This document shows, in pieces, positions 886-34,699 of a DNA stretch of 64,000 bases. How positions within the stretch are numbered: position 1 is the first letter of the stretch; each line of letters opens with the position of its first letter. Below the pieces are notes generated by a model. That model was not told the DNA's origin. It saw only the letters and a program-made list of their open reading frames with translations, and did no database searches. The position numbers were made by a program, and so were the translations under genes. The stretch is from Candidatus Latescibacterota bacterium. GTDB lineage: Bacteria > Latescibacterota > UBA2968 > UBA8231. The DNA lies in the NCBI GenBank assembly GCA_965203175.1, contig OZ241867.1, positions 3,072,001-3,136,000 of the forward strand, in the 5' to 3' direction.

Positions 886-2913
886 GTGACACCTGCAGAT
901 CCCCATAGCGAGTCGGGCGCTCGGGAGCGAGTGGCCGAGACCTTTATCAGACAGGCCAGCTTGAGAGAGACTCCTGCCGAGGAGAGCCAGCCCCTTTCCA
1001 TTCGGGCCTTTTTGTTGGGGGCCCTGTTGTGCCTTCTCATTGGTGTAGGCACCATTTACGCCAACGCCATTATCCAGGGCACCTTCATGGCTTGGTGCTT
1101 TAGCAATCCCGTTGCTCTCTTCCTGTTCTTCTACCTAGTGTTGGGCAATATCTTGGTGGGCACCTTGGCTCGCAATTTGGCGCTGAGGCGGGAAGAGTTG
1201 GTGCTGATCTACGCCATGATGATGGTGTCGGCGTCGATTCCCACCTTTGGCTTGGTCGAGCATCTGCTGCCCATGATCACGGGGGTCTTTTACTATGCTA
1301 CCCCCGAAAACAATTGGGGTGAACTGATCCAGCCCTATGTTCCCGCTTGGATCGCTCCCAGCGATGAGAATTTGATTCAAGGTTTCTACGAGGGCCTGCC
1401 CAAGGGGATGCCGGTGCCTTGGGAAGGCTGGTTGGAAACGCTGGGCTATTGGTCTGTTTTCCTCCTTGCTCTCTACTTAGTGTCGATTGGCCTGATGGTG
1501 CTTTTGCGTCGGCCGTGGATGGAAGGGGAACGCCTGCTCTATCCGATGATGCAGGTTCCCATTGAGATGATCAACGGACGCGAGGGGACATCCTTGGTGA
1601 GTGCAGTCTTCCGCCAGCCGCAGATGTGGATCGGTTTTGCTCTGCCCGTTATAGTGGGCTGCTGCAACGCCCTGCACAATTACTATCCGCAATGGCCGGG
1701 GCTGTACTTTCGCTCCAGTATGTACTTGTTCCGCGATACCATCAATCTGCCCTTTGAGTTTTCGTTTTCTCTGGTGGGTTTTTCCTATTTCATCAACCGG
1801 AACCTAGCCTTGGGAATCTGGTTTTTCTATTTGCTGGCCCTCGTCGAGCAGGGCTGTTTCAATATTCTCGGCGTCCACAGTACGGAAAAATTGGGTTGGT
1901 TTAGTAATCCTAGTTCCCCTTATCTGACCCACCAAGCTCTGGGGGCCATGCTGGTATTCGCTCTATATACTTTGTGGAAGGCGCGCTCCCATTTGCTGGC
2001 GGTAGCGCGCCGGGCTTGGAGTTGGGGCGGCGACGATGGCGACCAGAACGAGATTATGTCGTACCGGGCGGCCTTGTGGACGGTACTGGTAGGATTGGTC
2101 GTCATGGTAGTGTGGCTCGAGGCAACGGGCATCCCCTTGGTGGCGGTATTGCTCTTAGTCGCGGTGGCGATGCTTATCTTCATCGCATTGTCGCGCATTG
2201 TCGCCGAGGCTGGGGTGGCGCTGGTGCGAGCGCCGCTCATTGCGCCCGATTTTGTCATGGCCAGCATGGGCACCTCCTTCCTCGGGCCGAAGGGCTTGAC
2301 TGGCCTGGCCTACACCTATCCGTGGACTGCGGATATCGTCACTTTTCCCATGGCTGCCTGTGCCAATAGCCTGAAGATGATCCACGAGGTGGTGCGGGGG
2401 AGAAAGCGGGCCTTTTTCTGGGGCATGGTGCTGGCCTTGGTGGTTACGTTGGCAGGCGCGTTCTGGATTGTGCTGTACCTGTCCTATCGGCACGGCGGAA
2501 TCAATCTCAATAGCTGGTTCTGGCTCACCTCTTCCTCCGTTCCCCTCTCCTATATCTCGATGATGATGCGCAGTCCCTCGACGACGGAGCTAGGCGGCTG
2601 GCTGTTTACGGGCTTTGGCGCGGGGCTGATGTGGCTGCTGATCTGGGTGCATCAGCGGGTCATGTGGTGGCCCATTCATCCGCTGGGCTTGGCCATGACC
2701 GGGACGGTTTTCACCTCGGGGGTGATGTGGTTCAACGTCTTTTTGGCCTGGGCCATAAAGGGCTTAGTGCTCAAATACGGCGGCGGCCTTTTGTACCGTC
2801 AGACCCGGTACTTTTTTGTCGGCATGATCTTGGGTGCCTTTGTCGTGGCCGGCACTTGGCTGGTCATCGACTTTATTACCGGGAAGCAGGGCAATTTCGT
2901 GTTGATATGGTGA
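886..2913 (+). CDS. DUF6785/DUF6784-type polytopic membrane protein (putative transporter)
   Basis: 675 aa, many hydrophobic helices; motifs YYATPENNW, W.E.ERL.YP, RIVAEAG, WWPIHPLG, IK.LVLKYGG..LYR; paralogue at 58693-60588. Confidence 0.8.
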   Translation: MTPADPHSESGARERVAETFIRQASLRETPAEESQPLSIRAFLLGALLCLLIGVGTIYANAIIQGTFMAWCFSNPVALFLFFYLVLGNILVGTLARNLALRREELVLIYAMMMVSASIPTFGLVEHLLPMITGVFYYATPENNWGELIQPYVPAWIAPSDENLIQGFYEGLPKGMPVPWEGWLETLGYWSVFLLALYLVSIGLMVLLRRPWMEGERLLYPMMQVPIEMINGREGTSLVSAVFRQPQMWIGFALPVIVGCCNALHNYYPQWPGLYFRSSMYLFRDTINLPFEFSFSLVGFSYFINRNLALGIWFFYLLALVEQGCFNILGVHSTEKLGWFSNPSSPYLTHQALGAMLVFALYTLWKARSHLLAVARRAWSWGGDDGDQNEIMSYRAALWTVLVGLVVMVVWLEATGIPLVAVLLLVAVAMLIFIALSRIVAEAGVALVRAPLIAPDFVMASMGTSFLGPKGLTGLAYTYPWTADIVTFPMAACANSLKMIHEVVRGRKRAFFWGMVLALVVTLAGAFWIVLYLSYRHGGINLNSWFWLTSSSVPLSYISMMMRSPSTTELGGWLFTGFGAGLMWLLIWVHQRVMWWPIHPLGLAMTGTVFTSGVMWFNVFLAWAIKGLVLKYGGGLLYRQTRYFFVGMILGAFVVAGTWLVIDFITGKQGNFVLIW

Positions 2914-2915
2914 TT

Positions 2916-3003
2916 TCAATTAGGAATTGAGAATTAGGAATTACGAATTGAGCAATTGAGCAACGTACCAATTCCTAATTCTTAATTCCTAATTCCTAAT
3001 TGA
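2916..3003. repeat. Heptamer-built imperfect inverted repeat between convergent genes
   Basis: Left arm 2916-2949 (TC AATTAGG AATTGAG AATTAGG AATTACG AATT) vs right arm 2970-3003 (AATTCCT AATTCTT AATTCCT AATTCCT AATTGA); outer 13 bp perfectly complementary. Confidence 0.9.
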
Positions 3004-3004
3004 T

Positions 3005-4843: not shown

Positions 4844-4989
4844 GTCGCTTCACCCCATTGGAGATGGCTCCATTATAAAGCGGCTCGGGTAGCGAGACAA
4901 CTGCGCGGTGTGTGGCTGTTGGAGCTAGTCGTTGCTTGACCTATCTTTTCGGCATAAGTCTAACTGCGCGATCTCATCAGGAGGAGCAC

Positions 4990-5916
4990 ATGGGAGTGTG
5001 GATCGAAAAAACACCGATGCCGACCAATCGGCACGATCTCCAAGCGATTGCTGTGGACGGTGAGATCTATGCCATTTCCGGGGCTGGAGACCATACGGTA
5101 CACGTAGTTGAAATCTACGACGTGGCCAGCGACACTTGGCGACCGGGACCGCCCATCCCCACGCAGCGAGGGTGGTTTGGCGCAGCGCGGGTCGGCGACG
5201 AGATTTACGCCTGCGGCGGCAAGCGAGTGCGCACGGAGGAGGAAAAGCAGCAAACCGGCGACGACTATCACTTTGAAATCCGCGACAGCGTCGAGGTTTT
5301 GAATCTGAAGGCGCAGACTTGGTCCGCAGCCGCGCCCTTGAGCAAACCACGGGCTGGTCTGGTGGCCGTTGTCTGCAAGGGGAAGATCTACGCGGTCGGC
5401 GGCAACAGCATGAACGCCGAGCCCGAGATCGGCCAGCCGTACCTGGACCGCGTCGAGGTCTTCGACCCGACTACGGCTCGCTGGACCTTGGGAGTGCCCC
5501 TACCCAAAGCAGTCCAAGGGCCTGGAGTCGCCGTGGTGGACGACAAGATCTACGTCGCGACCGGGATCGGCGGCGACGGACCCCGGCCCGACTTCAATGT
5601 CTTCGACCCTGATACCGACCGTTGGTCGCCGCTGCCACCCATTCCCACGCCGCGCTGCGATCCGGGCTGTTTGGCCGTGGGGCGCAAGATCTACGTCTTT
5701 GGCGGCTGGGGCGGATCAGCGCCCTATCACACAGAGGTCGAAGTGTACGATATCGACGCCGGCACTTGGTCGAGCGAGACCCCCATGCCAGTGAAAAAAG
5801 CCTGGATGGCCACTGCGAATGTAGGCGCGCGAATTTTCGTCATGGGTGGGGCTCACAAGTGGGAGGACCGAGAGGGGTACAACTGGATCGCGGATCTGCA
5901 CGAGTACGTGCCCTAG
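4990..5916 (+). CDS. Kelch-repeat beta-propeller protein
   Basis: Six Kelch repeats (IYA.GG...VEVYD....W....PMP); ATG 4990 follows SD GGAGGAG; no signal peptide. Confidence 0.9.
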   Translation: MGVWIEKTPMPTNRHDLQAIAVDGEIYAISGAGDHTVHVVEIYDVASDTWRPGPPIPTQRGWFGAARVGDEIYACGGKRVRTEEEKQQTGDDYHFEIRDSVEVLNLKAQTWSAAAPLSKPRAGLVAVVCKGKIYAVGGNSMNAEPEIGQPYLDRVEVFDPTTARWTLGVPLPKAVQGPGVAVVDDKIYVATGIGGDGPRPDFNVFDPDTDRWSPLPPIPTPRCDPGCLAVGRKIYVFGGWGGSAPYHTEVEVYDIDAGTWSSETPMPVKKAWMATANVGARIFVMGGAHKWEDREGYNWIADLHEYVP

Positions 5917-5926
5917 GCCGGCGCTC

Positions 5927-7597
5927 ATGTCCACAGGGGTCTCCCTGGTCCTAGCGGTCATTTTACTAGGTTGCCAAGCGCAATCTGGACGGGAACAGAG
6001 CGAGCTGTCAAAGGCCCCCTTTCACTTCGTCGATGCCAGCCGGGAAGCGGGGCTGGACTTTCTAAACGTCTCAGGTAGCCCCCAACAGAATTACGTCCTT
6101 GAGTCCATGTCCACCGGGGCGGCTTTTCTCGACTACGACAACGACGGTTTTCAGGATCTTTTCGTCGTCAACGGGACGCGGTTGGAATACCAGCCAGAGG
6201 AGGCGCGCAACCGGCTTTTCCACAATGAGCTAGGTGCCGGAGGTGCGCGGGTTTTCCGTCAAGCGGAAGCCGATCTAGGCATTGGGGGCTGGGGTATGGG
6301 ATGCGCCGCAGGGGATTACGACAACGACGGCGATGTCGATCTGTACGTCACGTATTGGGGTCCCAACCAACTCTGGCGCAACGATGGGGCGGGCCGCTTT
6401 GCCGAAGTTGCCACTGCTGCCGGAGTGGATGATGGCCGCTGGGGTTCTAGCGCCGCCTTTGGGGATGTCGATGGCGATGGGTGGCTCGATCTGTACGTGA
6501 CCAACTACCTCGAATTCGATTTGGATAATCCGCCGGCGGGCGGCTCTAAATGTCACTACAAGGGTCTATATGTGTACTGCGGACCCGAATACGCCGGTCG
6601 GCAGGCGGACCGGATTTACCGCAATCGGGGCGACGGGACGTTTCTGGACATGAGCGATTCCACCGGAGTCGGCGCTTTGCGCTACCCGGCGATGGGGGTC
6701 GTCTTCAACGACTTGGACCGCGACGGCGATCTCGATCTGTACGTGGCCAACGATACCGAACCCAACCTGCTCTGGCGCAACGACGGTGACTGGCGGTTGG
6801 TTCAGGTGGCCGTCCAGGCCGGGGCCGCGTACAGCGGCGACGGTTTGCCGCAAGCCAGCATGGGATTGCACGCTGGCGATTTTGATTGCGACGGCGATCT
6901 CGATCTCTTTGCAACGCACTTTTCAGAAGAGCTCAATACCCTGTACTGCAACGAGGGAACTTGGCGCTTCCGGGATTGTACTCGCGAGGTCGGCTTGAGC
7001 CAAATTGAGGGCCCCTACTTGGGATGGGGAACGGCCTTTGTCGATTTCGACCGGGATGGCTGGCTCGACTTATTTGTCGCCAACGGGCACGTCTATCCGC
7101 AGCTAGACCAAAGCTACGCCGATTTGCGTTACGCCCAGCGCAATTTGCTCTACCGCAACGAGGGCGGGCGGTTCAGGGAGGTGGGAGGGCAGAGCGGGGC
7201 CGTGTGGAAGTTGCAGAAGGTGAGCCGCGCCGCGGCAGTGGGCGATTACGACAACGACGGCGATGTCGATGTTTTCATTATGAACTTGAACGATACGCCG
7301 ACCCTGCTGCGCAACGACAGCGAGGCGGATCACCGCTGGTTGGGTCTACGGCTGGTAGGGGCCGAAGGGCGGATTGCCATTGGTGCTGAGGTACGGGTGC
7401 AGGCCGGCGGCAGCGAGCAAGTGCGAGAGGTCCATCGGGGGTACAGTTTCCAGGCCCAAAACGACCCGCGCTTGTTGTTCGGCCTAGGGCAGTCAGCAGC
7501 GGTGGAACAGGTGGAAATCCGCTGGCCTTCTGGGCGGCGGCAGGTTTTGTCGAGTCTGCCGACCGGGCGCTATGTGGAGGTGATGGAGCAGCCCTGA
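5927..7597 (+). CDS. CRTAC1-family FG-GAP + ASPIC/UnbV lipoprotein
   Basis: Lipobox ILLGC; repeated DYDNDGD.DL.V motifs; C-terminal AIGAEV...FGLG...EIRWPSG. Confidence 0.9.
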   Translation: MSTGVSLVLAVILLGCQAQSGREQSELSKAPFHFVDASREAGLDFLNVSGSPQQNYVLESMSTGAAFLDYDNDGFQDLFVVNGTRLEYQPEEARNRLFHNELGAGGARVFRQAEADLGIGGWGMGCAAGDYDNDGDVDLYVTYWGPNQLWRNDGAGRFAEVATAAGVDDGRWGSSAAFGDVDGDGWLDLYVTNYLEFDLDNPPAGGSKCHYKGLYVYCGPEYAGRQADRIYRNRGDGTFLDMSDSTGVGALRYPAMGVVFNDLDRDGDLDLYVANDTEPNLLWRNDGDWRLVQVAVQAGAAYSGDGLPQASMGLHAGDFDCDGDLDLFATHFSEELNTLYCNEGTWRFRDCTREVGLSQIEGPYLGWGTAFVDFDRDGWLDLFVANGHVYPQLDQSYADLRYAQRNLLYRNEGGRFREVGGQSGAVWKLQKVSRAAAVGDYDNDGDVDVFIMNLNDTPTLLRNDSEADHRWLGLRLVGAEGRIAIGAEVRVQAGGSEQVREVHRGYSFQAQNDPRLLFGLGQSAAVEQVEIRWPSGRRQVLSSLPTGRYVEVMEQP

Positions 7598-7606
7598 CTC
7601 CCAATC

Positions 7607-9310
7607 TCAACTCGAAGGCGCGGGCGGGTCGAGTTGAATTTGGGGAATTGCTTCTGCAAAGATGCGCACCTGATCGGCGTATTCCTCTCTGTAGCGGGCG
7701 ACCAATTCATTGAAACGCCGTTCTTGCTCTATGACGCGCAAGATCGCCGCTATGCGCTTGTGCACTGCTGCTAAGGGGGGAATTTTCCCGCCGTTGCGCT
7801 CTTTGAGGCGGAAAATGGAATACCCGCCGGTCACTGCTACCGGGCCGACTAAGACGCCGATTTCGGCTGCCATAGCATGATCCACCAGCGCGCCGTAGAT
7901 CGCCTTCTGATACGAGTGGAGGTGAATCTTTCCACGGCCTTCTGGACCGCCGTGGCGCTGGCTCAGGGAGGCCAGATCGGCTATGGTTTCGCCGCGGTCT
8001 AAACGCTGGCGCAGGGCCTTGGCTTGATTGTGGTCGTCAACTAATAGTTCGTCTAGCCATAATTCCACCGGGGTGCGAAATTGTTCCCGATGGTCTTGGT
8101 AGTACTGGGACACGGCCGCATCGGTTATGGTTATTTTGTCGCCGATCTCGCTTTGGCGCAGGGCGAGGATGAGCATTTCCTCGGTTTTGCGCTGCTTCCA
8201 GTAGCGCATGGCAGGGCTTTCGGCGTAGCCGGCCTCTTTGGCCGCGTGCCAGACCAGCGACTTGGGAATGGGCAATTTCCAGGCCGCGCGGATTATCTGC
8301 AAGCTGTCGCCTAGGGCTGGCACTTGGCGGCTGCGACGAAAAGATTCAATGTAATGGGTCGCGGTTATGCGGCCGCCGTCAAAAATGAACAGTGGCGCTG
8401 AGCCTTCTTTGGGGGCGAGTTTGGGATAGGGTTCGACTGCGGGGTCTTGGGCCATGAGGACGGCCAGGCCAGCGGAGTGCAGACGCAGATTTAAGGAAGT
8501 CGCCAATTCCTCGATCAGAGCCTGATGCTCGGCGACGAAGCGCTCTTTCCACACATTTTTGTACAGGTCTTGGCGATACCGGGCGAAATCGGCACGGCGT
8601 TCAGCGGTACAGAAAATTAGCTGGTAGTTTTTGCTCAGGGGCAGGATTTCGGACAGGGAACTTGGCTCTAGGCTGGCAAAGACTTGAACGGGAATGCCGT
8701 GATTGGCGGCACCGACGCGGTTGACATAGCCCAAATCGCCGCCGTGCTCGGCGGATTGCAGGTCGAGTGAATAGGCCCGGGCCAAGGCGGCGAAGTCGTC
8801 GGCAGTGGCTATCTGCTGGCGCAATTTCACTGCTTCGTCGCGGGTGTTGACCAAGAGGCGGAGCAAGCGCTTTTCGCGCTGGAAGTCGCCCGCGACAAAG
8901 AGGTCTTCGAGTTCCTCGTCAGAAATCTCGATCTGGGCACTTACTTTGACGCTTTGATAGGTGTTGATGACCTTTTCGCGAAATTTCCAGGCGAGTTTGT
9001 TCTTGAAGGTCAGCACCGTGTCCAAACCGTGGGTGCGGGCCGCGTGGGCCAGCAGTTTCTGGTCTATGAGCGATTGCAGATAGTCGCGGCGCGCGGCATC
9101 GCCGCTCTCTTTGGATTTTAGACCGGGGCCTAAAGAGGCAATGAGACGCTCTACTTCGACCACGAAAATAGAATCGCTGCCGACTTGGGCGACGGCGACC
9201 TCCGGCGCGGAGGGAGGTTGTACAGCGGCGGGGGATTGGTCCTGGGGCGTACAGGCAGACAGAGCCCAACTAAGCGCTGAATACGGTATTAAAACAATGG
9301 TGCGATACAT
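7607..9310 (-). CDS. PpiC-type peptidyl-prolyl isomerase/foldase lipoprotein (PrsA/SurA-like, two rotamase-like domains)
   Basis: Lipobox ALSAC; DFAALARAYSLD...GGDLGYV rotamase motif; second degenerate domain ...GPVAVTGGYSIF. Confidence 0.8.
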   Translation of the reverse strand: MYRTIVLIPYSALSWALSACTPQDQSPAAVQPPSAPEVAVAQVGSDSIFVVEVERLIASLGPGLKSKESGDAARRDYLQSLIDQKLLAHAARTHGLDTVLTFKNKLAWKFREKVINTYQSVKVSAQIEISDEELEDLFVAGDFQREKRLLRLLVNTRDEAVKLRQQIATADDFAALARAYSLDLQSAEHGGDLGYVNRVGAANHGIPVQVFASLEPSSLSEILPLSKNYQLIFCTAERRADFARYRQDLYKNVWKERFVAEHQALIEELATSLNLRLHSAGLAVLMAQDPAVEPYPKLAPKEGSAPLFIFDGGRITATHYIESFRRSRQVPALGDSLQIIRAAWKLPIPKSLVWHAAKEAGYAESPAMRYWKQRKTEEMLILALRQSEIGDKITITDAAVSQYYQDHREQFRTPVELWLDELLVDDHNQAKALRQRLDRGETIADLASLSQRHGGPEGRGKIHLHSYQKAIYGALVDHAMAAEIGVLVGPVAVTGGYSIFRLKERNGGKIPPLAAVHKRIAAILRVIEQERRFNELVARYREEYADQVRIFAEAIPQIQLDPPAPSS

Positions 9311-9663: not shown

Positions 9664-10554
9664 ATGACTCGTCGCATCACAACGGCTGCTGTGGCCCTTA
9701 CGTTGGGCCTAGCGGTCAACATTTCGGCGCACTCGCCCGAGGGTGCCATTTTTCCGGCCTTCCAGTGGCCAGCCGGCCTCGAGCCAGTACTGGACGGCGT
9801 TGGCAGTGAATACGATATCGTCCCCGATGCGTACTGGCAGACCACCGAGCAGTTTCCCGACACCCAAGGTGGACGGGAAATAGACGCGTCAAATTTCGAC
9901 GCCAAAGCCACGGTGACCTATAGCTTGGGGACCAACCGGCTCTATTTTTACAGCGAAGTATTCGACGATATCAACCGCCCAGGCGATACCTGGCAAATTC
10001 TCCTCGACGCTGATCACAGCGGTGGTGAGTGCTATCCGGGTGATGAGCGCTTGGACGGCTCTCAGTGCTATCAGACCGAAACCTACAACAATATCGGCGA
10101 CACGCTGTTGGGATCGGAAATTGTCCACTTCTTCTGGGGCGCAGCGACTTGGCTGCCCGAGGAGGGCTGGTACAATGCGGTGGCCACCTTTGAGGGCGAC
10201 CACTACGGTCCGGGGACGACCTGGCTAGAGATTCGTTTGGCTCCTACCGACGACATCAATCCCGCCGGTCCTGGAGAGTCGATCCTGCACGAGATGCAAG
10301 AGAACAATATAATCGGCATCCACTACAACTGGATGGATTACGATGTCGGCTGCCGCCAAGCACGCGAAGGCGAAGAGTGCGGCGGTTGGGACGCTTTCTA
10401 CAACCTGAGCCAGAGCGACATTGGTTTTAGGAACGCCGATGGCTGCAGCGACTTCTTCTTGTCGCCCGTTGATGAGAGCGTTGATTTCGGTGCTATGACC
10501 ACTTCGGTTGAAGCCACGACTTGGGGGCGGCTCAAGGCCGGTTTCGTCGATTAA
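9664..10554 (+). CDS. Secreted acidic protein, possible CBM9/DOMON-like fold, with C-terminal TSVEATTWGRLK tail
   Basis: SD AAAGGA; signal peptide; PVLDG..SEY start and IGIHYNWMDYD strand reminiscent of CBM9/DOMON-like domains; several Cys. Confidence 0.65.
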   Translation: MTRRITTAAVALTLGLAVNISAHSPEGAIFPAFQWPAGLEPVLDGVGSEYDIVPDAYWQTTEQFPDTQGGREIDASNFDAKATVTYSLGTNRLYFYSEVFDDINRPGDTWQILLDADHSGGECYPGDERLDGSQCYQTETYNNIGDTLLGSEIVHFFWGAATWLPEEGWYNAVATFEGDHYGPGTTWLEIRLAPTDDINPAGPGESILHEMQENNIIGIHYNWMDYDVGCRQAREGEECGGWDAFYNLSQSDIGFRNADGCSDFFLSPVDESVDFGAMTTSVEATTWGRLKAGFVD

Positions 10555-12524: not shown

Positions 12525-13394
12525 ATGGACAGCATTTATCTGCGATGGGCCGGATGTGGACACTTTGAGGCGCTGTTGGGCGATATCAACGTGTGTTTCG
12601 ACCCCTATCTCTTCGGCGAAGACCTAGAACGGGCCGAACCGATATTCGACTACATTTTTATCAGCCACGAGCACTTTGACCATTGTCATCCCAAGAGTCT
12701 GCGCAAACTCTGCCAGGGCGACCGCTGGAAAAAACTCTTCGTCCCCATTGGCTGTCTGACGCCCAACGAGCCTGTTGACGAAAAGTACGGCGATGCCGCT
12801 TTTGCGCGCGACCTGCCCATCACCAAGCACATCCCCGCAGACAAGGTCCAGGTGGTTTATCCCAAGTACCAGGATGTCGAGCGCTATGGCCGCCGCGAAT
12901 TTCCTGGGCCCTTTGAGTTCGATCTGGGGCCGATTCAGGTTGAAGTGTACGAAAGCGGCGAAAGCGCCCGCCCGGACCTGCCCACTTGCGCCTATCTAGT
13001 TACCCATGCTGCAAGAGACGTAGCCATTTTTCACACCGGGGATTTGCACGGGGCCTATCCGCCGCTGGAGAATCTGCGCGACCGCGTCGATTACCTGGTA
13101 CACATGAAGACGCCGATGGAGCCGCTCATCAATGCGGTGCAGCCCAAATTCGTCATTCCCACCCACTACCGCACCGACCGCCAGGCCGAGCCGATTCCGG
13201 CTGGTCATTGGCCGCCCAATCTGACCGACGTCAATGCTTTCCTAGAAGACCTCCGGGAGCAAATTGACGGCAAGGCCCAATTGCTGCCTTTTACCGCACC
13301 TATTCAATACGAAGTGGAGATGCCGGCCAAGAAGGTCAAGTGGAAGTGGGAATGGTACAATTCATGGGATGTTCCGGCTTGGAGAGAAGAGTAG
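12525..13394 (+). CDS. Metallo-beta-lactamase-fold hydrolase (UlaG-like)
   Basis: FDPY, ISHEHFDH (HxHxDH), FHTGD, IPTHY; SD GGGAGG. Confidence 0.85.
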   Translation: MDSIYLRWAGCGHFEALLGDINVCFDPYLFGEDLERAEPIFDYIFISHEHFDHCHPKSLRKLCQGDRWKKLFVPIGCLTPNEPVDEKYGDAAFARDLPITKHIPADKVQVVYPKYQDVERYGRREFPGPFEFDLGPIQVEVYESGESARPDLPTCAYLVTHAARDVAIFHTGDLHGAYPPLENLRDRVDYLVHMKTPMEPLINAVQPKFVIPTHYRTDRQAEPIPAGHWPPNLTDVNAFLEDLREQIDGKAQLLPFTAPIQYEVEMPAKKVKWKWEWYNSWDVPAWREE

Positions 13395-13460
13395 GGACAA
13401 CGCTTGTGATTGACCAATCCCCTATGGACAGTGCGGGTTCGTCCTCTAAGAAAGAAAAGC

Positions 13461-18328: not shown

Positions 18329-18330
18329 TC

Positions 18331-25411: not shown

Positions 25412-27413
25412 CCCGCCCTCGGCAGCCCCAGTGAGTTGGCGCGAGTTGGGGATGGCAGGTGGTCTCTTCCTCTTGGCTTTGGTCGTGCGTCTGGTCTATC
25501 TGGAGCACTGCCAAGACAATCCCTTTTTCTCGGCCCCGGTAGTGGACGCCCACTCCTATGTGGCGCAGGCGCGGCAGATCGCCGAGGTGTCTTGGGTGGG
25601 AGACAAGCCCTTTTGGCAGCCGCCTCTATACCCCTATTTTCTCGCCCTGATCTACGCCGTTTCCGGAGACTTGTTCTGGACGCCCCGATTTATCCAGTTC
25701 CTCTTGGGGGCGGCCTCTTGTGCTTTGGTGTTTGGCATCGGTCGGCAGGTATTTTGCTCTCGGGTCGGTCTCCTCGCTGGGGCTATGGCCTGTCTATACG
25801 GACCCTCCATCTATTTTGAGGGAGAGTTACTACCTACCGCGCTGGCCGTTTTTCTCAATCTCTTGTTGCTCTTGGTCCTGCTCCAACCCGGCCGGGGATG
25901 GGGACAGGCTCTAGTCTCGGGCCTCGTCCAAGGCTTGGCCATAGTCGCTGTGCCCAATGCGGCCCTGTTGGCTCCTTGCGCCTGTTTGTGGTACTGGAAG
26001 AGCGCCGAGCGAGCCGTGCGGAGCAAGCTGGTCTGGTGCCTGCTGTTTGCGGCTACAGCCAGTGCCGTGGGCGGCGTGGTGACGGCGAGAAATTGGGTGG
26101 TCAGTGGCGAGTTCATCCCCTTGTCTTGGAACGGCGGAGTAAATTTCTACTTGGGCAACCATCCCGATTACGACCGCCTGGTGGGGATTCGCCCAGGGCC
26201 GGAATGGGAGGGCTTAATGGAGCAGCCGATAGCAGCGGGCTATGTAGGGTACGCTGAGCGCTCGGCCTATTTCTACCGACAAGCCGGCGACTGGATCGCC
26301 AGTGCGCCGGGGGATTTTGTGCGGTTGTTGGGGTACAAGGCGTTTTTGTTGGCGCGGGGCGAGGAGATCAAGCGCAACCAAGACGTGTACTTCGCCCGCA
26401 CCTATTCTTGGCTGATGAGCGTCTTGCTGTGGAAAATCCACCACTTTGCCTTTCCTTTTGGGCTACTGGGGCCCTTGGCTGCTGTGGGTATGGTCTTGGC
26501 TTGGCGGCACCGACTCCAGGTGAGTTTGCTGCTGCTCTGCACCGGCGCGTACAGCGCCTCGCTCTTGCTCTTTTTTATTACCGGCCGCTATCGCCTGCCC
26601 TTGGTGCCGCTACTGCTGCTCTTTGCCGGATACGCCCTGCTCTGGCTGGTGCAACAGGGGCAGGCCCGACAGTGGCGTCCCTTGGGGATCGGTGTGGCTT
26701 TGGTCGTCTTGCTGGGGATCGCCGCCAACGCTGGCCTGCGGCCAGCCGATCCCTTGGCCGACGCGGAAATACACTTTGATTTGGGACGCGGCCAAGCCCA
26801 ACGGGGACAGTATGCGGCTGCGATGCGCTCCTTTGGGACCGCCGTGCAACTCGATCCAAATTACCTGCGCGCCCGCCACAATCTGGGCGTGGCGCTGGCG
26901 GCGATGAAGCGCTACGACGAGGCCGAGGCAGTTTATCGGCAGGCCTTGGCGCAAGCACCAGAAGATCGGGGGCTGCACTTCAATTTGGCGGCTCTGTACC
27001 GGGCTACGGGACGATACGAGCAAGCGGTGGAGCACTACCGCCGAGTTCTGGCAAAAGAGGCTGACGCAGCGGTTTTTCTATCTCTGGGACAGGTCTATAA
27101 GAGAATGGAGGCAACGGAGCAAGCCCGGGAAGCCTTTACCGCGGCGCTAAGTGAAGACAAAGTGCGGGCGCAGGCGGCCAATGAACTGGGCCTGATCGAG
27201 GTCCGGCAAGGGGCGTTGGAGCGGGCGATTGATTATTTCGCTATGGCCCTAAAAGCCGCGCCCGGCAATCACTTGATCGCCTTTAATCTAGGGGCGGCCT
27301 ACCACGACTTGGGCCAATTCGACAAGGCGGCCCAGTTCTATCGCCTGACCTTGGGCTTGGCTCCCGACTACGCCAAAGCCCAGCGCGCATTGACGCGATT
27401 GCAGCGGCGATAG
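25404..27413 (+). CDS. GT-C (PMT/ArnT-like) membrane glycosyltransferase fused to C-terminal TPR repeats
   Basis: VDAHSY...FWQPPLYPYFLA, YFEGELL, NFYLGN and RYRLP motifs in a polytopic N-half; TPR repeats (RHNLGVAL, HFNLAALY, FNLGAAY). Confidence 0.8.
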   Translation: MNSPPSAAPVSWRELGMAGGLFLLALVVRLVYLEHCQDNPFFSAPVVDAHSYVAQARQIAEVSWVGDKPFWQPPLYPYFLALIYAVSGDLFWTPRFIQFLLGAASCALVFGIGRQVFCSRVGLLAGAMACLYGPSIYFEGELLPTALAVFLNLLLLLVLLQPGRGWGQALVSGLVQGLAIVAVPNAALLAPCACLWYWKSAERAVRSKLVWCLLFAATASAVGGVVTARNWVVSGEFIPLSWNGGVNFYLGNHPDYDRLVGIRPGPEWEGLMEQPIAAGYVGYAERSAYFYRQAGDWIASAPGDFVRLLGYKAFLLARGEEIKRNQDVYFARTYSWLMSVLLWKIHHFAFPFGLLGPLAAVGMVLAWRHRLQVSLLLLCTGAYSASLLLFFITGRYRLPLVPLLLLFAGYALLWLVQQGQARQWRPLGIGVALVVLLGIAANAGLRPADPLADAEIHFDLGRGQAQRGQYAAAMRSFGTAVQLDPNYLRARHNLGVALAAMKRYDEAEAVYRQALAQAPEDRGLHFNLAALYRATGRYEQAVEHYRRVLAKEADAAVFLSLGQVYKRMEATEQAREAFTAALSEDKVRAQAANELGLIEVRQGALERAIDYFAMALKAAPGNHLIAFNLGAAYHDLGQFDKAAQFYRLTLGLAPDYAKAQRALTRLQRR

Positions 27414-27434
27414 CCCTGAGGGATCGTTTGGAAC

Positions 27435-27531
27435 TCATGGGAGATCATCATACGGGCTAAGACGACCGAACCGACACAAGATACATCAACGCATTATGCA
27501 AGGACTGCGGTAATTTGACGACGCGGAATGG
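27435..27531 (+). pseudogene. Decayed fragment of the DUF5615 PIN toxin gene
   Basis: Aligns by eye to 35316-35412, with indels and a CAA>TAA stop. Confidence 0.85.
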
Positions 27532-27540
27532 GATGCGAGA

Positions 27541-29691: not shown

Positions 29692-29804
29692 GACTCCCTC
29701 CTTGCTGCTTCACCAATACAAAGTGTGCAGTTCAAAGGTTGTGAAGATTAAGTATACAACCAAGCTGAGCATTTAGAAACAAAATTTCTTCCTCGTTTTC
29801 GATT

Positions 29805-31964
29805 TCAATAGGCGACGGCAAAGACGCCCTGTTGGGTGTATTGCTCCTCGGAATCGAGCGTCAATTCGTAGATATAGGTGCCGGGTTGAACCAACGCGTC
29901 CTGCTCATTGCGACCGTTCCACTCCTGGACAAAGACACCACTGCGGGCTTTGACCACCGGCAGGTGCGCCAGCAGCCGACCCGCTAAATCGTAGATACGC
30001 ACCTGCACGGCCCGCTCTACTGTGACCTCGCGCAGCTTGTAGGCGATGGTCAAGGTCTCGTTGATCCCATCGCCGTTGGGGGTAACTACTTGGGGCACTT
30101 GCACATCCACCAGCAGATCACCTCCCACCGGCGTGTTGACCGCCAGCAAGTCGCCAGCAAAGCGGAACGTGGCATTGCCCGGGTCAATCCGCTGCCGAAT
30201 CTGATCCGGGTCCGTGCTGCTGAACACCCAGCCGCTGAACTCAGTGCCAAAGCGCAGCACCGGCACGTCGAAGGCGACTTCGATCTGTTTGAAGTTGTCG
30301 GCGCTGCCCGTCAGGGGAGGGAAGGACACGATCAGGCGATCGTCGAGCAGGTGGGGGACGAACTGGTCTAGATCGACCGGCTGGCCATCCAGCCGCACGG
30401 CGCGCACCGCGTGCGCCCGGACATGGGTGAGGATTTCCAAGCGGTCAAAGCCGGCGTTGTCGTCGTTGAGGGTGGGCAAGACCACATAGGTGAAGGGCGT
30501 GGGTTCAAAGGAGTTGACCTCGATAGGCCAGATTTCGCCGACGAGGGCCTGTGCCGACAGAGTTTCGCTCAACTGTAGGGTGAGTTGATCTAGGCGCGGC
30601 GCCACATTGAGGTCGGCGAAGAGTTTGATGGCGAGTTGGATGTATTGGCTGGGTCCGGGCGACAGCAGCGGGCTCCCGTCCTGCCAGGCGCTGGCCGGCT
30701 GGTCGGGGTCGCGCAAGCCAGCGGCAAAGTCATAGGGCGGCGACCAGAAGCTCCAGTTATCGGCATCGTAGGTGGGGACTAGCCGGGCGGCGATATCGAT
30801 GTTGGCGTGTTCGGCGCGGGTGATGGGTATGAGTTCGTCGTTGACATTGGGTGCGAAGTAGAGCAGCGGATCGGGGGTGTGGCCGGTGCGGGTGCGAATC
30901 TCGATGCGGGTGCCTGCGGGCATGTCGCCTTCCCAGCGTATTTTGCCCCAAGTGACGGGTTGTCCGAAGTCGAGGATGGGGGTTAGGTAGGTTGTCTCGT
31001 GGACGTAGCCGCCCCCATAGATTTCGAATTCGGCGATTTCGTAGTCGCGCAGGGGGAAGGCGCGCAGGGTGAGCCAGCGAACCGGGCGAGTGGAAAAGCG
31101 CAGGTCGACGATGGGGTTGAGATTTTCGCGGGTGGACTCCAGCACTGTCAGCAGGGGATCGCCGCTCCGCACCCACCGCAAGTTGCCCAGCACCGTGCGG
31201 CGCTTGCTGGTGGCCACAGCGCCTATGTCGCGCTTGGAGCTGTCGAAGAGGAAGGTGCTAGTACCGCTGCATGGATCTGGGGCAAAGACGACGGAGTTAT
31301 CGCCGGTGCGGATCTCATACCAAGCGAGAAAATTGTCGAGGAAGCTGTCTTGGCCGAAGCTCTCGACATCTGGAGTCGGTTCCCGCAGGGATTCGATCAG
31401 TTGGCGGTCTTCGCGCTGGCTCAGGCGGGGATAGAAGCGGATGCGATTGATGGGGATTGCGCCGCCAAGATCAAAGACCACGGCTCCCCTCCAGGTAGAG
31501 CCATCTCCAGGCCGGCCCCCGGCCCGTTGCACAAAGGTTCGAAAAGTGGCCGTAGAGGGATCGCCGTCCAGCATTAGTTTGATCGTATTGGCATGTAATT
31601 GCGCCTGACCGCAACTATTAGTAAGGACTCTCGAACCGGGCATATAGGGCAGGGGGATCTCGGTCTTGCTGGCGTGGACATCGGCCCGGGCGATATTGAC
31701 GGAGGGATCAATCAAACGGGGCTGAATGGCTGTGCCGGAGAAATCGACCAGCGTATCGGCCCCCGCGCCAAAGGGCGATATCCTCACTGGCACTTGTCTC
31801 TCTGGCTGGCCGTCGGCATCTTGGATCTGAAAGAAGCTCTCTTTGGTCAAGACCGTCTGCCAATCGTTTCCGCTAATCCCGCCCAGACGGTATTCGGTTG
31901 CACCAAATACGTGCGCAGCACTGAGCGGCATAGTAAAAACGAGAAATAACACAAGCCCTGCCAT
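29805..31964 (-). CDS. Secreted FlgD-Ig/CHU_C-like C-terminal domain protein (member 6; tandem duplicate of member 5)
   Basis: SD AAGGAG before ATG 31964; C-terminal half nearly identical to 27541-29691 at offset 2264 nt; ends AVAY. Confidence 0.8.
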   Translation of the reverse strand: MAGLVLFLVFTMPLSAAHVFGATEYRLGGISGNDWQTVLTKESFFQIQDADGQPERQVPVRISPFGAGADTLVDFSGTAIQPRLIDPSVNIARADVHASKTEIPLPYMPGSRVLTNSCGQAQLHANTIKLMLDGDPSTATFRTFVQRAGGRPGDGSTWRGAVVFDLGGAIPINRIRFYPRLSQREDRQLIESLREPTPDVESFGQDSFLDNFLAWYEIRTGDNSVVFAPDPCSGTSTFLFDSSKRDIGAVATSKRRTVLGNLRWVRSGDPLLTVLESTRENLNPIVDLRFSTRPVRWLTLRAFPLRDYEIAEFEIYGGGYVHETTYLTPILDFGQPVTWGKIRWEGDMPAGTRIEIRTRTGHTPDPLLYFAPNVNDELIPITRAEHANIDIAARLVPTYDADNWSFWSPPYDFAAGLRDPDQPASAWQDGSPLLSPGPSQYIQLAIKLFADLNVAPRLDQLTLQLSETLSAQALVGEIWPIEVNSFEPTPFTYVVLPTLNDDNAGFDRLEILTHVRAHAVRAVRLDGQPVDLDQFVPHLLDDRLIVSFPPLTGSADNFKQIEVAFDVPVLRFGTEFSGWVFSSTDPDQIRQRIDPGNATFRFAGDLLAVNTPVGGDLLVDVQVPQVVTPNGDGINETLTIAYKLREVTVERAVQVRIYDLAGRLLAHLPVVKARSGVFVQEWNGRNEQDALVQPGTYIYELTLDSEEQYTQQGVFAVAY

Positions 31965-31981
31965 AGCGCGCTCCTTAGTAT

Positions 31982-34699
31982 TTAGTCGACTCGCTCTAAT
32001 ATGCGGCCGATGCGGGTTGTGTCCGCGATTTGTTCCCACTCCACCACGGCTTCGTCGTAGCGCTCTAACTGGAAATACGCTTGGCCCAAGGCACCGCGAA
32101 TCTCGGCGGCGTCTGGTGCGTAGGCCGCTGCTTTATGCAAATAGTCGAGGGCACCCTGGGGGTCATTGCGGCGCAAGCAGAGGAGGCCAAGGCCGTACAG
32201 ACCAAGCGCACTTTGCGGTGCTCGGTCTACCATCTCTTGGTAGTGCATCGCAGCCCAATCTAGCCTTCCTTGCGCCATGTACGCCAAACCCAGATCTAAA
32301 AGGGCCTTTTCGTTTTGCGGCTCGCGGTCAATCTGGGCCTGCAGGGATTCGACGCGTTGTTCGAGCCGGCGATACCGTTCAAACCGTTTGTTCGCTTCCT
32401 CAGCCGCTTTTTCATTGCCTTGCCTTGTGTAAAGTTGTGCCAATGCCAACAGCGGCCCGGGTTCCCAGGGTGCCCACCTTGTGGCGTTGCTAAAAGCATT
32501 TGCAGCTTCGGTCAAATGATTGCTTTGCTCATAGGCCCGACCTAGCCAGAAGTACGCCTCCCAATCCTGTATCCGCAAGCTGGCGACCCGCTCAAAGGCC
32601 CGGGCAGCTAAAACGGGCCGATCCAAGTCCAGATAGACTTTGCCGAGCACGAGAAAACTTTCCGCGGATGATGAATCGCGGCGAGCCGCCTCTTCCACAT
32701 ATAGAAGCGCCTCATCGGCTACACCCATGCCGGCATAGAACAATGTGCCCATGCCTAGGTTGGCCAGCTTATGGGTCGGATCCAAGGCCAAGGCCCGATA
32801 GAAGGCGGCGTGGGCTTCACCGTATTGTCCGGCTTGGTAGTATTGGTTGCCGAGGGCTGCAAAATCCGCGGCGCTCCAGTTCGCCGTCTGTGACAAAGCG
32901 ATAAGAGATTCGCTCTGGGGTGGGGGAATAGCTGGTCCTTGCTCAAAGTCATCGCGCCCCTCGTGTACTTTGAGGTAGCGCCGCACCGGCGGTGCAGCAA
33001 TTGTTTGACGGGAGCCTGATGGCCAGTGTATTTCAATTCGCTCTACGGTTTTGTTCGAACCTAGGCCTATCAACGTGCGAGGATCGTGTTGGCCTTGAAA
33101 ACCATAACCGCGAAATACTTCTCTCATTTGCACCTGATCGGCGGTAAAAATCCAGATTCTAGCGCCGATGCCATCCCGGTTGCTGACGTGACCCACCAGT
33201 TCAATACCCAGCCAGTCATTGAAGTTTCCCCCCTCGTTGCGCAGCAGGGTTGGTGCTGCGTTGTGATTTACCACGGCCAGATCGAGATCTCCATCGTTGT
33301 CGTAGTCGCCTTGGGCCGCCGCGCGACTGGCCGCTTCGAGCTGCCAGGCCGCTCCGGCCCGGCGGCCCACTTCTATAAAGTGCCCATGTTGATTTTGATA
33401 GAGAAGGTTGCGCTGTCGGTAGGTCAATCCCGAAGCATGGACTCCCAACTGTGGATAGACGTGGCCGTTAATTACATATAGATCCAGCCAGCCATCGTTG
33501 TCGTAATCCCAAAAAGCGGTCGCCCAACCCAGATAGGGTCGGTCACTGGCACTCAAGCCGGTGGCGTGCGAAACATCCACAAGGCGCATAGAGTCAGTCG
33601 TCGGAGATTGGTTCTGGTACAGGGTATTGTAGTCTTCGGAGAAATTAGTCACAAACAAATCTAGGTCGCCATCGTTGTCGTAATCGCCGCTGTGGACCCC
33701 CATGCCGGCCTGGGGTCGCCCGCTCTCGCTATAGGCTGCCCCGGTCGATTGACCGATTTCGCTGAAGTACCAGTTGCCGTCGTTGCGCAAAATCATATTG
33801 GGCTCACTGTCGTTGGCAACGTAAATGTCTAGGTCGCCGTCGTTATCGAGGTCGCCAAACGCAACTCCTAAACCAGCATAGCTCCACTGGTCTAGGCCGC
33901 TGCTTGCACTCATATCGGCAAAGGTGCCGTCGCCGTTGTTGCGGTAGAGCACATCGGCTTGGGCTGGAACTCCCTGTGGTCCGCACGGTACGGCCAGCCC
34001 TTTGTATTGGCAGGGTTGGCCGTCTTGGGGGGGATGGTGCAAATCTATGTGGAGGTAGTTGGCCACGTAGAGGTCTAGCCAGCCGTCGCTATCCAAATCG
34101 GCAAAAGCCGCACTGGTGCCCCAACCGGGATGATCCACTCCGGCCTGGGCGGCGGTTTCGTCAAAGGTGCTGTTGCCGTTATTGCGGTACAACAGATTGG
34201 GACCCCAATAGGTCACCAATAGGTCGGTATCGCCATCGTTGTCGGTATCGCCAGTAGCGCACCCCATGCCCCAACCCTTGGATAGCAGGCCGCTTTGATG
34301 GGTCACTTCGCGGAAGTGCCTCTGGGCGTTGGGGCCGGGTTCGTTGTGGAAGAGGCGGTTAGTTGCTTGTGGAGGATCCGCGTCTAGCAAGGTGCCGTTG
34401 ACGAAGAAGAGGTCCAGCCACCCATCGTCATCGTAGTCGAGGAAAGCCACGCCAGTGCCCGTAGTTTCCACCAAGAGTTGCGGGTTGTCCTGCCCGGAGA
34501 GATTGGCGAAATCTAGGCCGACTTGGGCTGCCACATCGGTGAATAACACAGGATGACTCTCCTCAGCCATACTCGTTGAGGACAGGTGAGCGGGGGATTG
34601 GACCGAGGCCGACCGAGGCTGTTCCGAAGGGGCCTGTGGGGTGCATCCAACCGCCGGGATTGCGATGAACAGAGCGCGGCCAAGCAGTGTCCTAGACAC
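31982..34699 (-). CDS. CRTAC1-family FG-GAP + ASPIC/UnbV lipoprotein with C-terminal TPR array
   Basis: Lipobox-like AVGC; DYDNDG repeats; NRDGIGARI...HWPSG; then ~300 aa of TPR repeats. Confidence 0.88.
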   Translation of the reverse strand: MSRTLLGRALFIAIPAVGCTPQAPSEQPRSASVQSPAHLSSTSMAEESHPVLFTDVAAQVGLDFANLSGQDNPQLLVETTGTGVAFLDYDDDGWLDLFFVNGTLLDADPPQATNRLFHNEPGPNAQRHFREVTHQSGLLSKGWGMGCATGDTDNDGDTDLLVTYWGPNLLYRNNGNSTFDETAAQAGVDHPGWGTSAAFADLDSDGWLDLYVANYLHIDLHHPPQDGQPCQYKGLAVPCGPQGVPAQADVLYRNNGDGTFADMSASSGLDQWSYAGLGVAFGDLDNDGDLDIYVANDSEPNMILRNDGNWYFSEIGQSTGAAYSESGRPQAGMGVHSGDYDNDGDLDLFVTNFSEDYNTLYQNQSPTTDSMRLVDVSHATGLSASDRPYLGWATAFWDYDNDGWLDLYVINGHVYPQLGVHASGLTYRQRNLLYQNQHGHFIEVGRRAGAAWQLEAASRAAAQGDYDNDGDLDLAVVNHNAAPTLLRNEGGNFNDWLGIELVGHVSNRDGIGARIWIFTADQVQMREVFRGYGFQGQHDPRTLIGLGSNKTVERIEIHWPSGSRQTIAAPPVRRYLKVHEGRDDFEQGPAIPPPQSESLIALSQTANWSAADFAALGNQYYQAGQYGEAHAAFYRALALDPTHKLANLGMGTLFYAGMGVADEALLYVEEAARRDSSSAESFLVLGKVYLDLDRPVLAARAFERVASLRIQDWEAYFWLGRAYEQSNHLTEAANAFSNATRWAPWEPGPLLALAQLYTRQGNEKAAEEANKRFERYRRLEQRVESLQAQIDREPQNEKALLDLGLAYMAQGRLDWAAMHYQEMVDRAPQSALGLYGLGLLCLRRNDPQGALDYLHKAAAYAPDAAEIRGALGQAYFQLERYDEAVVEWEQIADTTRIGRILERVD

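Follow-up and report, generated by a model that had tools for sequence, protein, structure and literature searches.

Do the genes crowded into 34 kb of a Latescibacterota genome form a single envelope machine, and what would such a machine do? The DNA concerned is a stretch of 64,000 nucleotides (nt), the window hereafter, covering positions 3,072,001-3,136,000 of the single-contig, 6.58-Mb genome of a Candidatus Latescibacterota bacterium. This group is widespread and poorly understood, and to our knowledge it has no cultured member. A preliminary description had proposed, for positions 886 to 34,699 of the window, an undescribed envelope system in which secreted cargo proteins, two barrels of about 910 amino acids (aa), a foldase and a DUF6785 transporter act together. 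We find in the window a single copy of an outer-membrane cassette that is typical of Latescibacterota and multiplied in this genome, with a recurring core of one or two barrel genes (B), two or more cargo genes (C), one gene for a secreted protein (H) and one for a parvulin-type foldase lipoprotein (P). The cassette associates cargo with a dedicated barrel from an undescribed family, at a multiplicity resembling that of polysaccharide utilization loci (PULs). Listing of the open reading frames (ORFs) and Pfam and NCBIfam scans recovered every gene named in the preliminary description where it had been placed. The core genes are the following.

B1, 15599-18328 (+): 909-aa predicted outer-membrane beta-barrel, B1-type, with signal peptide and AlphaFold2 model
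B2, 18331-21063 (+): 910-aa paralogue, B2-type, with signal peptide, 47% identical to B1
C1, 3005-4843 (-): cargo paralogue, CHU_C 40.6 bits, FlgD_ig 39.4 bits, 48% identical to C2
C2, 10649-12499, ORF opening at 10508 (+): putative type IX secretion system (T9SS) cargo, with a predicted CBM32-like head (CBM, carbohydrate-binding module), an Ig-like body and a C-terminal domain (CTD), CHU_C 43 bits
C3, 13458-15581, ORF opening at 13410 (+): putative T9SS-type cargo of the subfamily found directly upstream of B, FlgD_ig 32.1 bits
C4, 21074-23587, ORF opening at 20972 (+): putative T9SS-type cargo directly downstream of B2, FlgD_ig 34.6 bits
C5, 27541-29691 (-): cargo paralogue, CHU_C 44.9 bits, 81% identical to C6
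C6, 29805-32039 (-): cargo paralogue, CHU_C 46.8 bits
H, 9664-10554 (+): 296-aa secreted protein, predicted to be CBM9-like, with the conserved C-terminal tail TAVExxSWGxIKxxF
P, 7607-9310 (-): PpiC-type parvulin lipoprotein with two rotamase domains, SurA/PrsA-like, lipobox LSAC

The arrangement is repeated throughout the genome. Dozens of full-length paralogues were found by tblastn of the window proteins against their own genome, and a crude longest-ORF caller (4,794 ORFs) combined with BLAST coverage filters counted 62 B genes in 40 loci, 168 C, 58 ASPIC, 53 DUF6785, 36 P, 27 H and 15 GT-C/TPR genes (TPR, tetratricopeptide repeat). Of the 62 B genes, 47 have a C within one gene (4.3 expected) and 58 within two (8.2 expected), and the adjacent B-C pairs are on the same strand in 51 cases out of 51, mostly with gaps of -4 to +25 nt. 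Counted by locus, C is present at all 40 B loci (random mean 10.2), in two or more copies at 38 of them, while H or its sister family J, represented by a 322-aa relative of H, occurs at 33 (random means 4.0 for H and 2.3 for J), P at 32 (random mean 5.1), and C, H/J and P together at 30. Seen from the partner genes, 30 of the 36 P paralogues are within five genes of a B and 22 of the 27 H within six. Several gene orders recur, namely H-C-C-C-B(-B)-P, P-C-B-G-C-C-B-H, p-H-C-B-C-C-T, C-B-H-C-P-C and J-U-C-C-C-B, where G is a GT-C/TPR gene, T a DUF6785 gene and U a lipoprotein of ~250 aa. The position immediately before B (-1) is occupied by 41 of the 168 C genes, and some C subfamilies keep to it (9/9, 8/9, 6/6 and 4/4 members).

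The same order and linkage are met with again in other Latescibacterota genomes. A search of species-representative genomes with a B profile gave 611 confirmed places, and the best 80 loci were examined, many of them cut by contig ends; once six loci orthologous to that of the window (L015-L020) had been set aside, 74 were left, six of which had no ORF passing the B filter. C is directly beside B in 61 of these 74 foreign loci and within two genes in 64, all 90 adjacent pairs being on the same strand; 39 loci contain H, 37 contain P and 22 contain DUF6785. In the reverse direction, the best full-coverage matches of C3 elsewhere have a B gene immediately after them in 33 of the top 35. The named B1 homologues and the best 80 loci come nearly all from metagenome-assembled genomes (MAGs) labelled Candidatus Latescibacterota, a minority being labelled Gemmatimonadota by their submitters. 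The co-location of barrel, cargo and foldase noticed in the window thus holds in 40 loci of its own genome and in 74 non-orthologous loci of others. Phyletic profiles were drawn for three queries over one set of 151 genomes of the phylum in 14 families, in which related genomes are not independent of each other.

B: 95/151 genomes; family f1 63/63, f2 0/30, f3 0/19, f10 13/13 (divergent)
C body without CTD: 84/151 genomes; f1 63/63, f2 0/30, f3 0/19, f10 3/13 (weak)
DUF6785: 137/151 genomes; f1 63/63, f2 30/30, f3 19/19, f10 0/13

B and the C body agree in 12 of the 14 families, and in f8 the same single genome (1/5) has both. It follows that B and C are distributed together, and that the phyletic profile of DUF6785 is separable from theirs.

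Barrel B belongs to no described family. Both B proteins carry an N-terminal signal sequence and match no Pfam family even at E<=10 and no NCBIfam model, and a profile of B retrieved 0 chains at E<=1 among PDB sequences. An AlphaFold2 model of B1 built from a 61-row alignment (pLDDT 72, pTM 0.72) has ~28-30 long antiparallel strands over residues 139-905, as counted from the DSSP string, with low confidence at residues 16-136 and 539-572 though these are strongly conserved. The B alignment also contains invariant acidic blocks (DNDDQD, DENNDF.SDFNQND and D.NNN.WIDRFE.D) that resemble calcium-binding loops and may act as such. Foldseek returned 63 PDB matches of the B1 model at E<=1e-3, led by LptD, MtrB, SlpA and the ushers PapC/FimD (best matches 5iv9_A at 7.6e-8, 6r2q_B at 1.2e-7 and 8ae1_A at 4.1e-6) and including TonB-dependent receptors and SprA, with TM-scores of only 0.13-0.30. 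In VIA, a search independent of Foldseek, all 50 listed entries were membrane barrels (Z 9.2-13.5), among them SprA (Z 12.2, 390 residues aligned), SlpA (Z 12.0, 343 aligned) and LptD (Z 10.8, 345 aligned). The distant relatives of B end in a canonical aromatic residue (..VTGY, ..VVGF, ..SLGW) and the window copies in YAGLGL or YAGLE. With a signal peptide and a predicted barrel that matches only membrane barrels, B is best described as a putative large outer-membrane barrel of no known family, and the earlier view of the ~910-aa proteins as barrels is upheld at the level of structure prediction. It gives no match to PorP/SprF, neither B1 nor B2 hitting TIGR03519, and none to TonB-dependent transporters or SusC, neither a Plug nor a TonB_dep_Rec domain being found at E<=10; elsewhere in the genome 31 Plug proteins exceed the cut-off, and SusD_RagB, absent from the locus, has one match in the genome at another place. 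The family is large: in a set of 1.84 billion representatives it forms 1,061 clusters when grouped at 50% identity (E<=1e-3).

A FastTree phylogeny, rooted at the midpoint, of the B proteins from this genome (62) and from distant families (16) consists of two clades. The first contains the B proteins of two extended loci of this genome (described below as full loci), two further clusters of its own and all those of distant families, and in it B proteins of the first, second and third tandem position cluster with their counterparts in other lineages. The second contains all the others including B1 and B2, and each of its 10 B1-type genes adjoins one of its 10 B2-type genes. As all ten tandem pairs join one B1-type to one B2-type gene, the B1/B2 pair is a conserved heterotypic unit, and this pairing rule hints at hetero-oligomeric barrels. 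When B1 (residues 24-909) and the C3 CTD (608-707) were modelled together as a complex, the score was 0.00 in a run made without controls, which speaks neither for nor against an association.

The six cargo proteins are paralogous over their whole length and not in the tail only (26-48% identity by BLASTP, apart from the closer pair C5/C6), and all end in V[AV]Y. CHU_C exceeds 27 bits in four of them (40.6, 43.0, 44.9 and 46.8) and FlgD_ig also in four, each protein passing the cut-off of at least one of these curated Pfam CTD models, in agreement with the common C-terminal domain reported in the preliminary description. Positions 1024-1092 of the PorU model are matched by these tails as well. 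In the cargo alignment, the C6 row was entered as 29880-32039 (-), 25 codons short at the C-terminus, and the other 57 rows are complete. That description had asked whether SprA and PorV are present in the genome: SprA_N scores 82 bits against a cut-off of 27, its open frame being 2,133 aa long, PorU reaches 632.5 bits (cut-off 420), and a PorV-like gene adjoining PorU gives 147.5 bits, below the 250-bit cut-off, so that translocon, sortase and a PorV-like shuttle are all represented and the T9SS reading is supported. Using the C-terminal part of the PorU model, 231 candidate CTDs were found in the genome, and 50 of the 51 that were scored are tail-only. No PorP/SprF is found in the genome, the sole match (21.3 bits) falling on the PorV-like gene. 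On this evidence the tailed proteins count as T9SS-type cargo, although they remain below the curated NCBIfam cut-offs.

What the cargo carries is suggested by its profile and by one model. In the profile of the C family, the tail corresponds to FlgD Ig domains (6e-10) and to the C-terminus of PorU, and the part at residues ~86-220 to CBM32/F5-8 type C modules and the galactose-binding domains of sialidases (3e-5 to 1e-3). C4 itself scores 29.8-30 bits with F5_F8_type_C (cut-off 28.2) and 32.1-32.4 bits with F5_F8_type_C_2 (cut-off 27.8), and from the family profile a similar CBM32-like head is likely in the other five window cargo proteins. The AlphaFold2 model of C2 is all-beta and multi-domain (pLDDT 91.3), and its Foldseek matches are galactose oxidase, whose N-terminal domain we take to be CBM32-like, Fn3/Ig arrays and PorU, with no enzyme fold found. 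C is accordingly predicted, from family profile and model, to be non-catalytic and to bear a CBM32-like head, a putative sugar binder.

The two other core proteins are H and P. The H protein of the window has no Pfam match of its own even at E<=10. Its nearest ESM Atlas clusters score 0.93-0.97 and carry CBM9_1 on 13-100% of their members, and an H paralogue in a full locus matches CBM9_1 (PF06452) at 39.3 bits against a cut-off of 23.4, another paralogue reaching 17.5 bits; H is thus predicted to be CBM9-like. For P, Rotamase_2 (60.2 bits) and Rotamase (44 bits) exceed their cut-offs and SurA_N_3 remains below (20.7 against 27.2), which places it among the parvulin peptidyl-prolyl isomerase chaperones, with no NCBIfam equivalog reached. 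As an observation on H and its sister family, the tail TAVExxSWGxIKxxF (window 10480-10554) ends both H and J. A regular expression for it retrieved 83 of the 4,794 ORFs, made up of 22 of the 27 H, 15 of the 17 J and 46 others mostly of 150-380 aa, some of them in tandem arrays (for example genome positions 1,361,532-1,376,241), and it has the look of a C-terminal signal, so far undescribed, for sorting or docking.

More extended versions of the cassette exist. Nine B loci were fetched from families f10, f14 and f7, and in four of these nine distant loci a CTD-bearing C gene containing an F5/8 type C domain lies upstream of B. In three of the four, L114 (2389-3339), L115 (7241-8164) and L121 (10298-11353), a protein of ~310-350 aa is encoded between C and the first B, with a barrel-like C-terminus and an aromatic last residue; one of the three has a weak match to FadL/Toluene_X (1e-4, below cut-off), and this small protein may be a PorV/PorP-like shuttle. 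Downstream of two or three tandem B genes, L113 and L114 encode a TPR protein of ~1,090 aa with YfiO-like repeats, DUF5683, MotA/ExbB, two ExbD and DUF4159 proteins, while L121 shows the TPR protein and ExbB and the stretch of L115 (f14) ends inside the TPR gene. Loci of families f10 and f7, and two of the window's own genome, share the order C-(small outer-membrane protein)-B-B-1,090-aa TPR-...-ExbB-ExbD-ExbD on one strand. The genome of the window has two full loci of its own, 2,791,416-2,809,816 (L122) and 6,154,009-6,173,755 (L123), in which B and C are on one strand with a TPR protein of ~1,085 aa, MotA/ExbB, two ExbD and lipoprotein U; L123 additionally has DUF5683 and DUF4159, and L122 has P. 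Judging from the midpoint root, the full locus would be ancestral and the window type a derived, multiplied satellite.

What could such a cassette be for? The explanation that we rank first, giving it a little less than an even chance, is that of a surface capture-and-uptake module following the logic of SusCD and built from unrelated parts. C and H would be exported by Sec and fold in the periplasm, where P could serve as a dedicated chaperone for C, for the insertion of the huge barrel B, or for both. C would then pass the outer membrane via the SprA translocon and dock, on the surface, on the barrel encoded beside it, the subfamily directly upstream of B being the likeliest direct partner. 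The CBM-like heads would bind glycans or glycoconjugates, and B would admit the captured material to the periplasm, possibly energised in trans by the ExbB-ExbD-ExbD/TPR sets of the full loci, before whichever permease is at hand (DUF6785, ABC) takes the inner-membrane step. The gene families, the predicted folds, the linkage and the distribution are as observed above; surface docking, direction of transport, substrate and energy coupling are the conjectural elements of this scheme.

Several features favour uptake: the PUL-like multiplication, the CBM-like parts, the size of the predicted lumen and the linkage to a motor. The 62 B genes also outnumber the 31 Plug receptors over cut-off and the single SusD-like gene. 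Weak evidence comes from RNA-library contigs that cover parts of the locus, in four runs filed as metatranscriptomes from three studies, 95-99% alike and from a close relative; two of 4.1 kb span H, C2, the metallo-beta-lactamase-fold (MBL) hydrolase gene next to it and the start of C3, and shorter ones lie on P, C3, B1, B2, C4 and ASPIC. Bins without contig cover near 25.5-27.5 kb are no sign of silence.

A number of results weigh against capture and uptake, or against the T9SS delivery on which it relies. The type B CTD model TIGR04131 reaches at best 30.9 bits (cut-off 35), with four of the six cargo proteins listed and none over it, and the type A model TIGR04183 at best 18.7 bits (cut-off 23). 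The GldL/GldM models TIGR03513, TIGR03517 and PF12081 have no match in the genome, in a search where the control genomes were themselves silent for the two TIGR models and below cut-off for PF12081, so that the result is no sign of absence. The ExbBD link is seen in only 2 of the 40 own loci and 3 of the 9 distant ones, and no TonB-like gene was recognised in the loci that bear it. B has no recognisable Plug or TonB-dependent-receptor domain in the search at E<=10, and its conserved N-terminal 110 residues (region 24-136) and acidic insert (about 496-611) are modelled without confidence, for which reason an open channel is only putative. No glycoside hydrolase, lyase or peptidase is a regular member of the cassette in the 40 loci, and DUF6785, the sole candidate for a dedicated inner-membrane step, is phyletically decoupled from B. 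The RNA evidence consists of contigs only, compatible with DNA carry-over and amounting to no proof of transcription; their depths vary from gene to gene but give no ranking of expression. Sulfatases, considered as a mark of the cassette, were ruled out, being present at 7 of the 40 loci against a random mean of 6.3 and thus not enriched.

The capture-and-uptake reading has a stronger form, which we regard as possible yet doubtful: a nutrient-uptake architecture of the Latescibacterota's own, made of giant barrels of 28-30 strands, often in heterotypic pairs, T9SS-delivered CBM lids, a CBM9-like partner, parvulin assembly and TPR-coupled ExbB-ExbD-ExbD motors, in which the full locus would be the complete machine and the ~40 cassettes substrate-specific front ends sharing its motor. 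It would entail, and this we hold to be similarly doubtful, no relation to TonB-dependent receptors or SusCD and no recognisable TonB box or plug.

The main rival of uptake is surface display. B would hold its cognate C on the surface as adhesins, for example for host or particle glycans, in the manner of PorP/SprF, and nothing would be imported; we consider this rather unlikely. Cargo encoded beside a dedicated barrel is the genetic signature of type B CTD/PorP pairs, as two papers on them describe it (PMC9143113, PMC12618676). On type B models the CTDs of the window reach as much as 46.8 bits (CHU_C) and 30.9 (TIGR04131), more than the 18.7 at best on type A, the genome's only hit to the PorP/SprF model is the 21.3-bit one on the PorV-like gene, no catabolic enzyme is regular in the cassette, and the position-specific C subfamilies suggest a one-to-one partnership with B. 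At 909 aa, B is nevertheless some three times as long as the PorP family model with its 292 positions, to which its sequence shows no match, and the ~310-aa barrel-like protein between C and B in distant families could be the PorP-like shuttle, which would leave B another job. A lumen of 28-30 strands, tandem heterotypic barrels and the ExbBD/TPR linkage also exceed the needs of an anchor.

A second rival takes the whole 34 kb as one obligatory machine, with DUF6785, three ASPIC proteins, GT-C/TPR and kelch as parts, feeding the nearby aldolases and oxidoreductases. The remaining genes of this part of the window are as follows.

HpcH aldolase, 48-869: ends 16 nt upstream of the DUF6785 gene T
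T, 886-2913 (+): DUF6785/DUF6784 polytopic membrane protein, 415.5 and 89.5 bits
A, 5846-7597 (+): FG-GAP/ASPIC-UnbV lipoprotein, accessory (Pfam scan, BLASTP)
MBL hydrolase, 12525-13394 (+): metallo-beta-lactamase-fold protein inserted in the cassette, Lactamase_B_3 38.9 bits
A, 23597-25411 (+): FG-GAP/ASPIC-UnbV lipoprotein, accessory (Pfam scan)
G, 25380-27413 (+): glycosyltransferase of GT-C type (PMT_2, 37.5 bits) that carries TPRs at its C-terminus, accessory
A, 31982-34699 (-): FG-GAP/ASPIC-UnbV lipoprotein fused to TPRs, accessory (Pfam scan, BLASTP)

The three FG-GAP/ASPIC-UnbV proteins have lipobox-like N-termini and are 38-53% identical to each other, and a kelch protein is also among the window genes. 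On the + strand, neighbours between 10649 and 27413, in gene terms from H to the GT-C gene, are 2-63 nt apart or overlap, which confirms the close one-strand spacing noted at the outset, and the order p-H-C-(MBL)-C-B-B-C-A-G is a variant of the recurring ones. Around B, several of these families are enriched: DUF6785 occurs at 25 of the 40 loci (random mean 6.5), ASPIC at 23 (6.3), TPR-only proteins at 19 (4.2) and GT-C at 13 (2.2), with 31 of the 53 DUF6785 paralogues within 10 genes of a B (12.1 expected) and 12 of the 15 GT-C within six, and T has the aldolase directly upstream. However, 17 of the 40 loci lack A, 27 lack G and 15 lack T, so that of the proposal that ASPIC, GT-C/TPR and TPR proteins are parts of the system the enrichment near B stands, in fewer loci than the core. 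The MBL hydrolase has a single copy in the genome and is kept only in the orthologous loci L015-L018, and kelch has three copies, two of them in the window, and is not recurrent with B.

DUF6785 is the component on which this rival fails most clearly. It is multi-copy in f2 and f3 (30/30 and 19/19 genomes), where no B or C was found, and was not found in f10 (0/13), where B is present in 13 of 13; it is therefore no integral part of the system, contrary to what had been proposed. A second DUF6785/DUF6784 gene lies in the window itself (58693-60588, -), in a neighbourhood of GFO/IDH/MocA oxidoreductases, a short-chain dehydrogenase/reductase (SDR) and HpcH aldolases that contains neither B nor C, and this copy supports DUF6785 being an independent inner-membrane transporter family. 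Its nearest Atlas clusters other than DUF ones are annotated 'peptide transporter'/OPT at 0.77-0.79, which is a lead only, and against the PDB it gave chance-level matches only. With DUF6785 in an aldolase operon and kelch and MBL not recurring with B, the 34 kb did not hold up as a single machine, nor is the feeding of nearby aldolases and oxidoreductases supported. Two large families are scattered across the genome, the enolase-type dehydratases with 57 members, of which 4 are near B, and the sulfatases with 47, of which 8 are, and proteins with an FGE-sulfatase domain are partly enriched near B (8/13). The single-machine view is thus largely refuted by the phyletic profiles as to DUF6785, and is improbable as a whole.

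Slightly more improbable still is a role in export or assembly, with B as an usher-, TpsB- or PgaA/BcsC-like pore for C or for a surface glycan made by the GT-C/TPR enzyme, driven by an ExbBD-like motor. The fold matches include ushers (PapC/FimD), TpsB proteins (FhaC, CdiB) and the polysaccharide-exporting barrels PgaA, BcsC and PelB, TPR proteins and the GT-C enzyme are enriched near B, and motors of the ExbBD type also drive processes other than import. These fold matches are nonetheless generic to membrane barrels, with low TM-scores (0.13-0.30) and Z values tied across unrelated families; C already has a T9SS-type CTD in a genome with SprA, PorU and a PorV-like gene, and GT-C is limited to 13 of the 40 loci. 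Tandem duplication alone, by which paralogue-rich genes would stay together without any functional unit, since every family is large and copying entire blocks would in itself leave neighbours side by side in a genome, is barely credible and contradicted by conservation across lineages, as adjacency and the strand rule hold in other genera and families at ~50% identity and down to hidden Markov model E-values of 1e-43 to 1e-112, B and C have a phyletic profile in common, and the position-specific C subfamilies are conserved.

Outside the cassette, the window contains other regions of interest. The GC content falls to 0.483 at 36-38 kb, compared with ~0.59 elsewhere, in the region 35409-38230, which encodes a 506-aa protein with a weak SLFN/AlbA_2 match and ORFs of no family, and an AlbA_2 plus HATPase_c_4 protein at 60576-61766 lies near an M78/IrrE-like peptidase at 62910-63857; the two regions, 35409-38230 and 60576-63857, may be mobile or defence-related islands. 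Between 38651 and 48453 are genes for a MIP channel, an M55 D-aminopeptidase, an M19 dipeptidase and hydantoinase/oxoprolinase A and B, together with a CarboxypepD_reg-type TonB-dependent receptor (39630-42521, -), which suggests a cluster for the use of peptides or cyclic amides that has a conventional receptor. Large catabolic families are present genome-wide, the enolase superfamily (MR_MLE) with 57 proteins, the sulfatases with 47, PhyH-type dioxygenases with 37 and 31, and the SDR cluster with 38. Runs labelled as sponge metagenomes contain about half of the sampled words, and no habitat is claimed from them.

The weight of the cassette in this genome is considerable. B and C together make up ~5% of the crude ORFs (62 + 168 of 4,794), and with such a share in two families of one cassette its function is therefore central to the contact of the cells with their surroundings. 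If uptake is true, it would represent a third design for selective outer-membrane transport beside TonB-dependent receptors and SusCD, and T9SS cargo could act as transporter lids. If display is true, the rule of cargo with a dedicated barrel known for type B CTDs would extend beyond Bacteroidota with a different barrel. The B family, the position-specific C subfamilies and the SWGxIK tail are without family models and could each be given one.

The proposal that the system is undescribed stands in so far as no matching description was found in the literature and no Pfam or NCBIfam model covers B. Literature searches on Latescibacterota, T9SS, DUF6785, DUF4159 and DUF5683, supplements aside, gave no description of a barrel-cargo system, and the available portion of the 2015 Latescibacteria genome paper (PMC4454575) mentions only non-specific porins and Plug-domain receptors.

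Three groups of known systems are close enough for comparison. The very large barrels LptD, MtrB, Deinococcus SlpA and SprA are the best structural matches of the B model, and several of them house a partner protein in their lumen; LptD and MtrB have 26 strands, SlpA 30 and SprA 36. B has no sequence relationship to them, and possesses its own conserved N-terminal region and acidic, EF-hand-like insert. The SusC/SusD loci of Bacteroidota likewise consist of dozens of paralogous loci pairing an outer-membrane barrel with surface glycan-binding proteins, which are predicted ones here, and in both cases the barrels may rely on a few ExbBD motors encoded elsewhere. In contrast to SusC, B is without Plug or TonB-dependent-receptor domain, its lids would be T9SS-type cargo and not SusD-like lipoproteins, its cassettes have no regular carbohydrate-active enzymes or hybrid two-component or extracytoplasmic-function regulators, and transport by B is putative. 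The PorP/SprF barrels with type B CTD cargo of the Bacteroidota T9SS, as described in PMC9143113 and PMC12618676, share with the present system a CHU_C-like CTD cargo beside a dedicated barrel, many cargo/barrel pairs per genome and cargo subfamilies tied to gene position. The B cassette differs from them in having a barrel of ~910 aa and a predicted ~28-30 strands, against the 292 positions of a PorP/SprF model that it does not match, in its often tandem heterotypic barrels with two to four cargo genes per barrel, in its predicted CBM9-like protein and parvulin lipoprotein, and in its host, which belongs to the Latescibacterota and not to the Bacteroidota.

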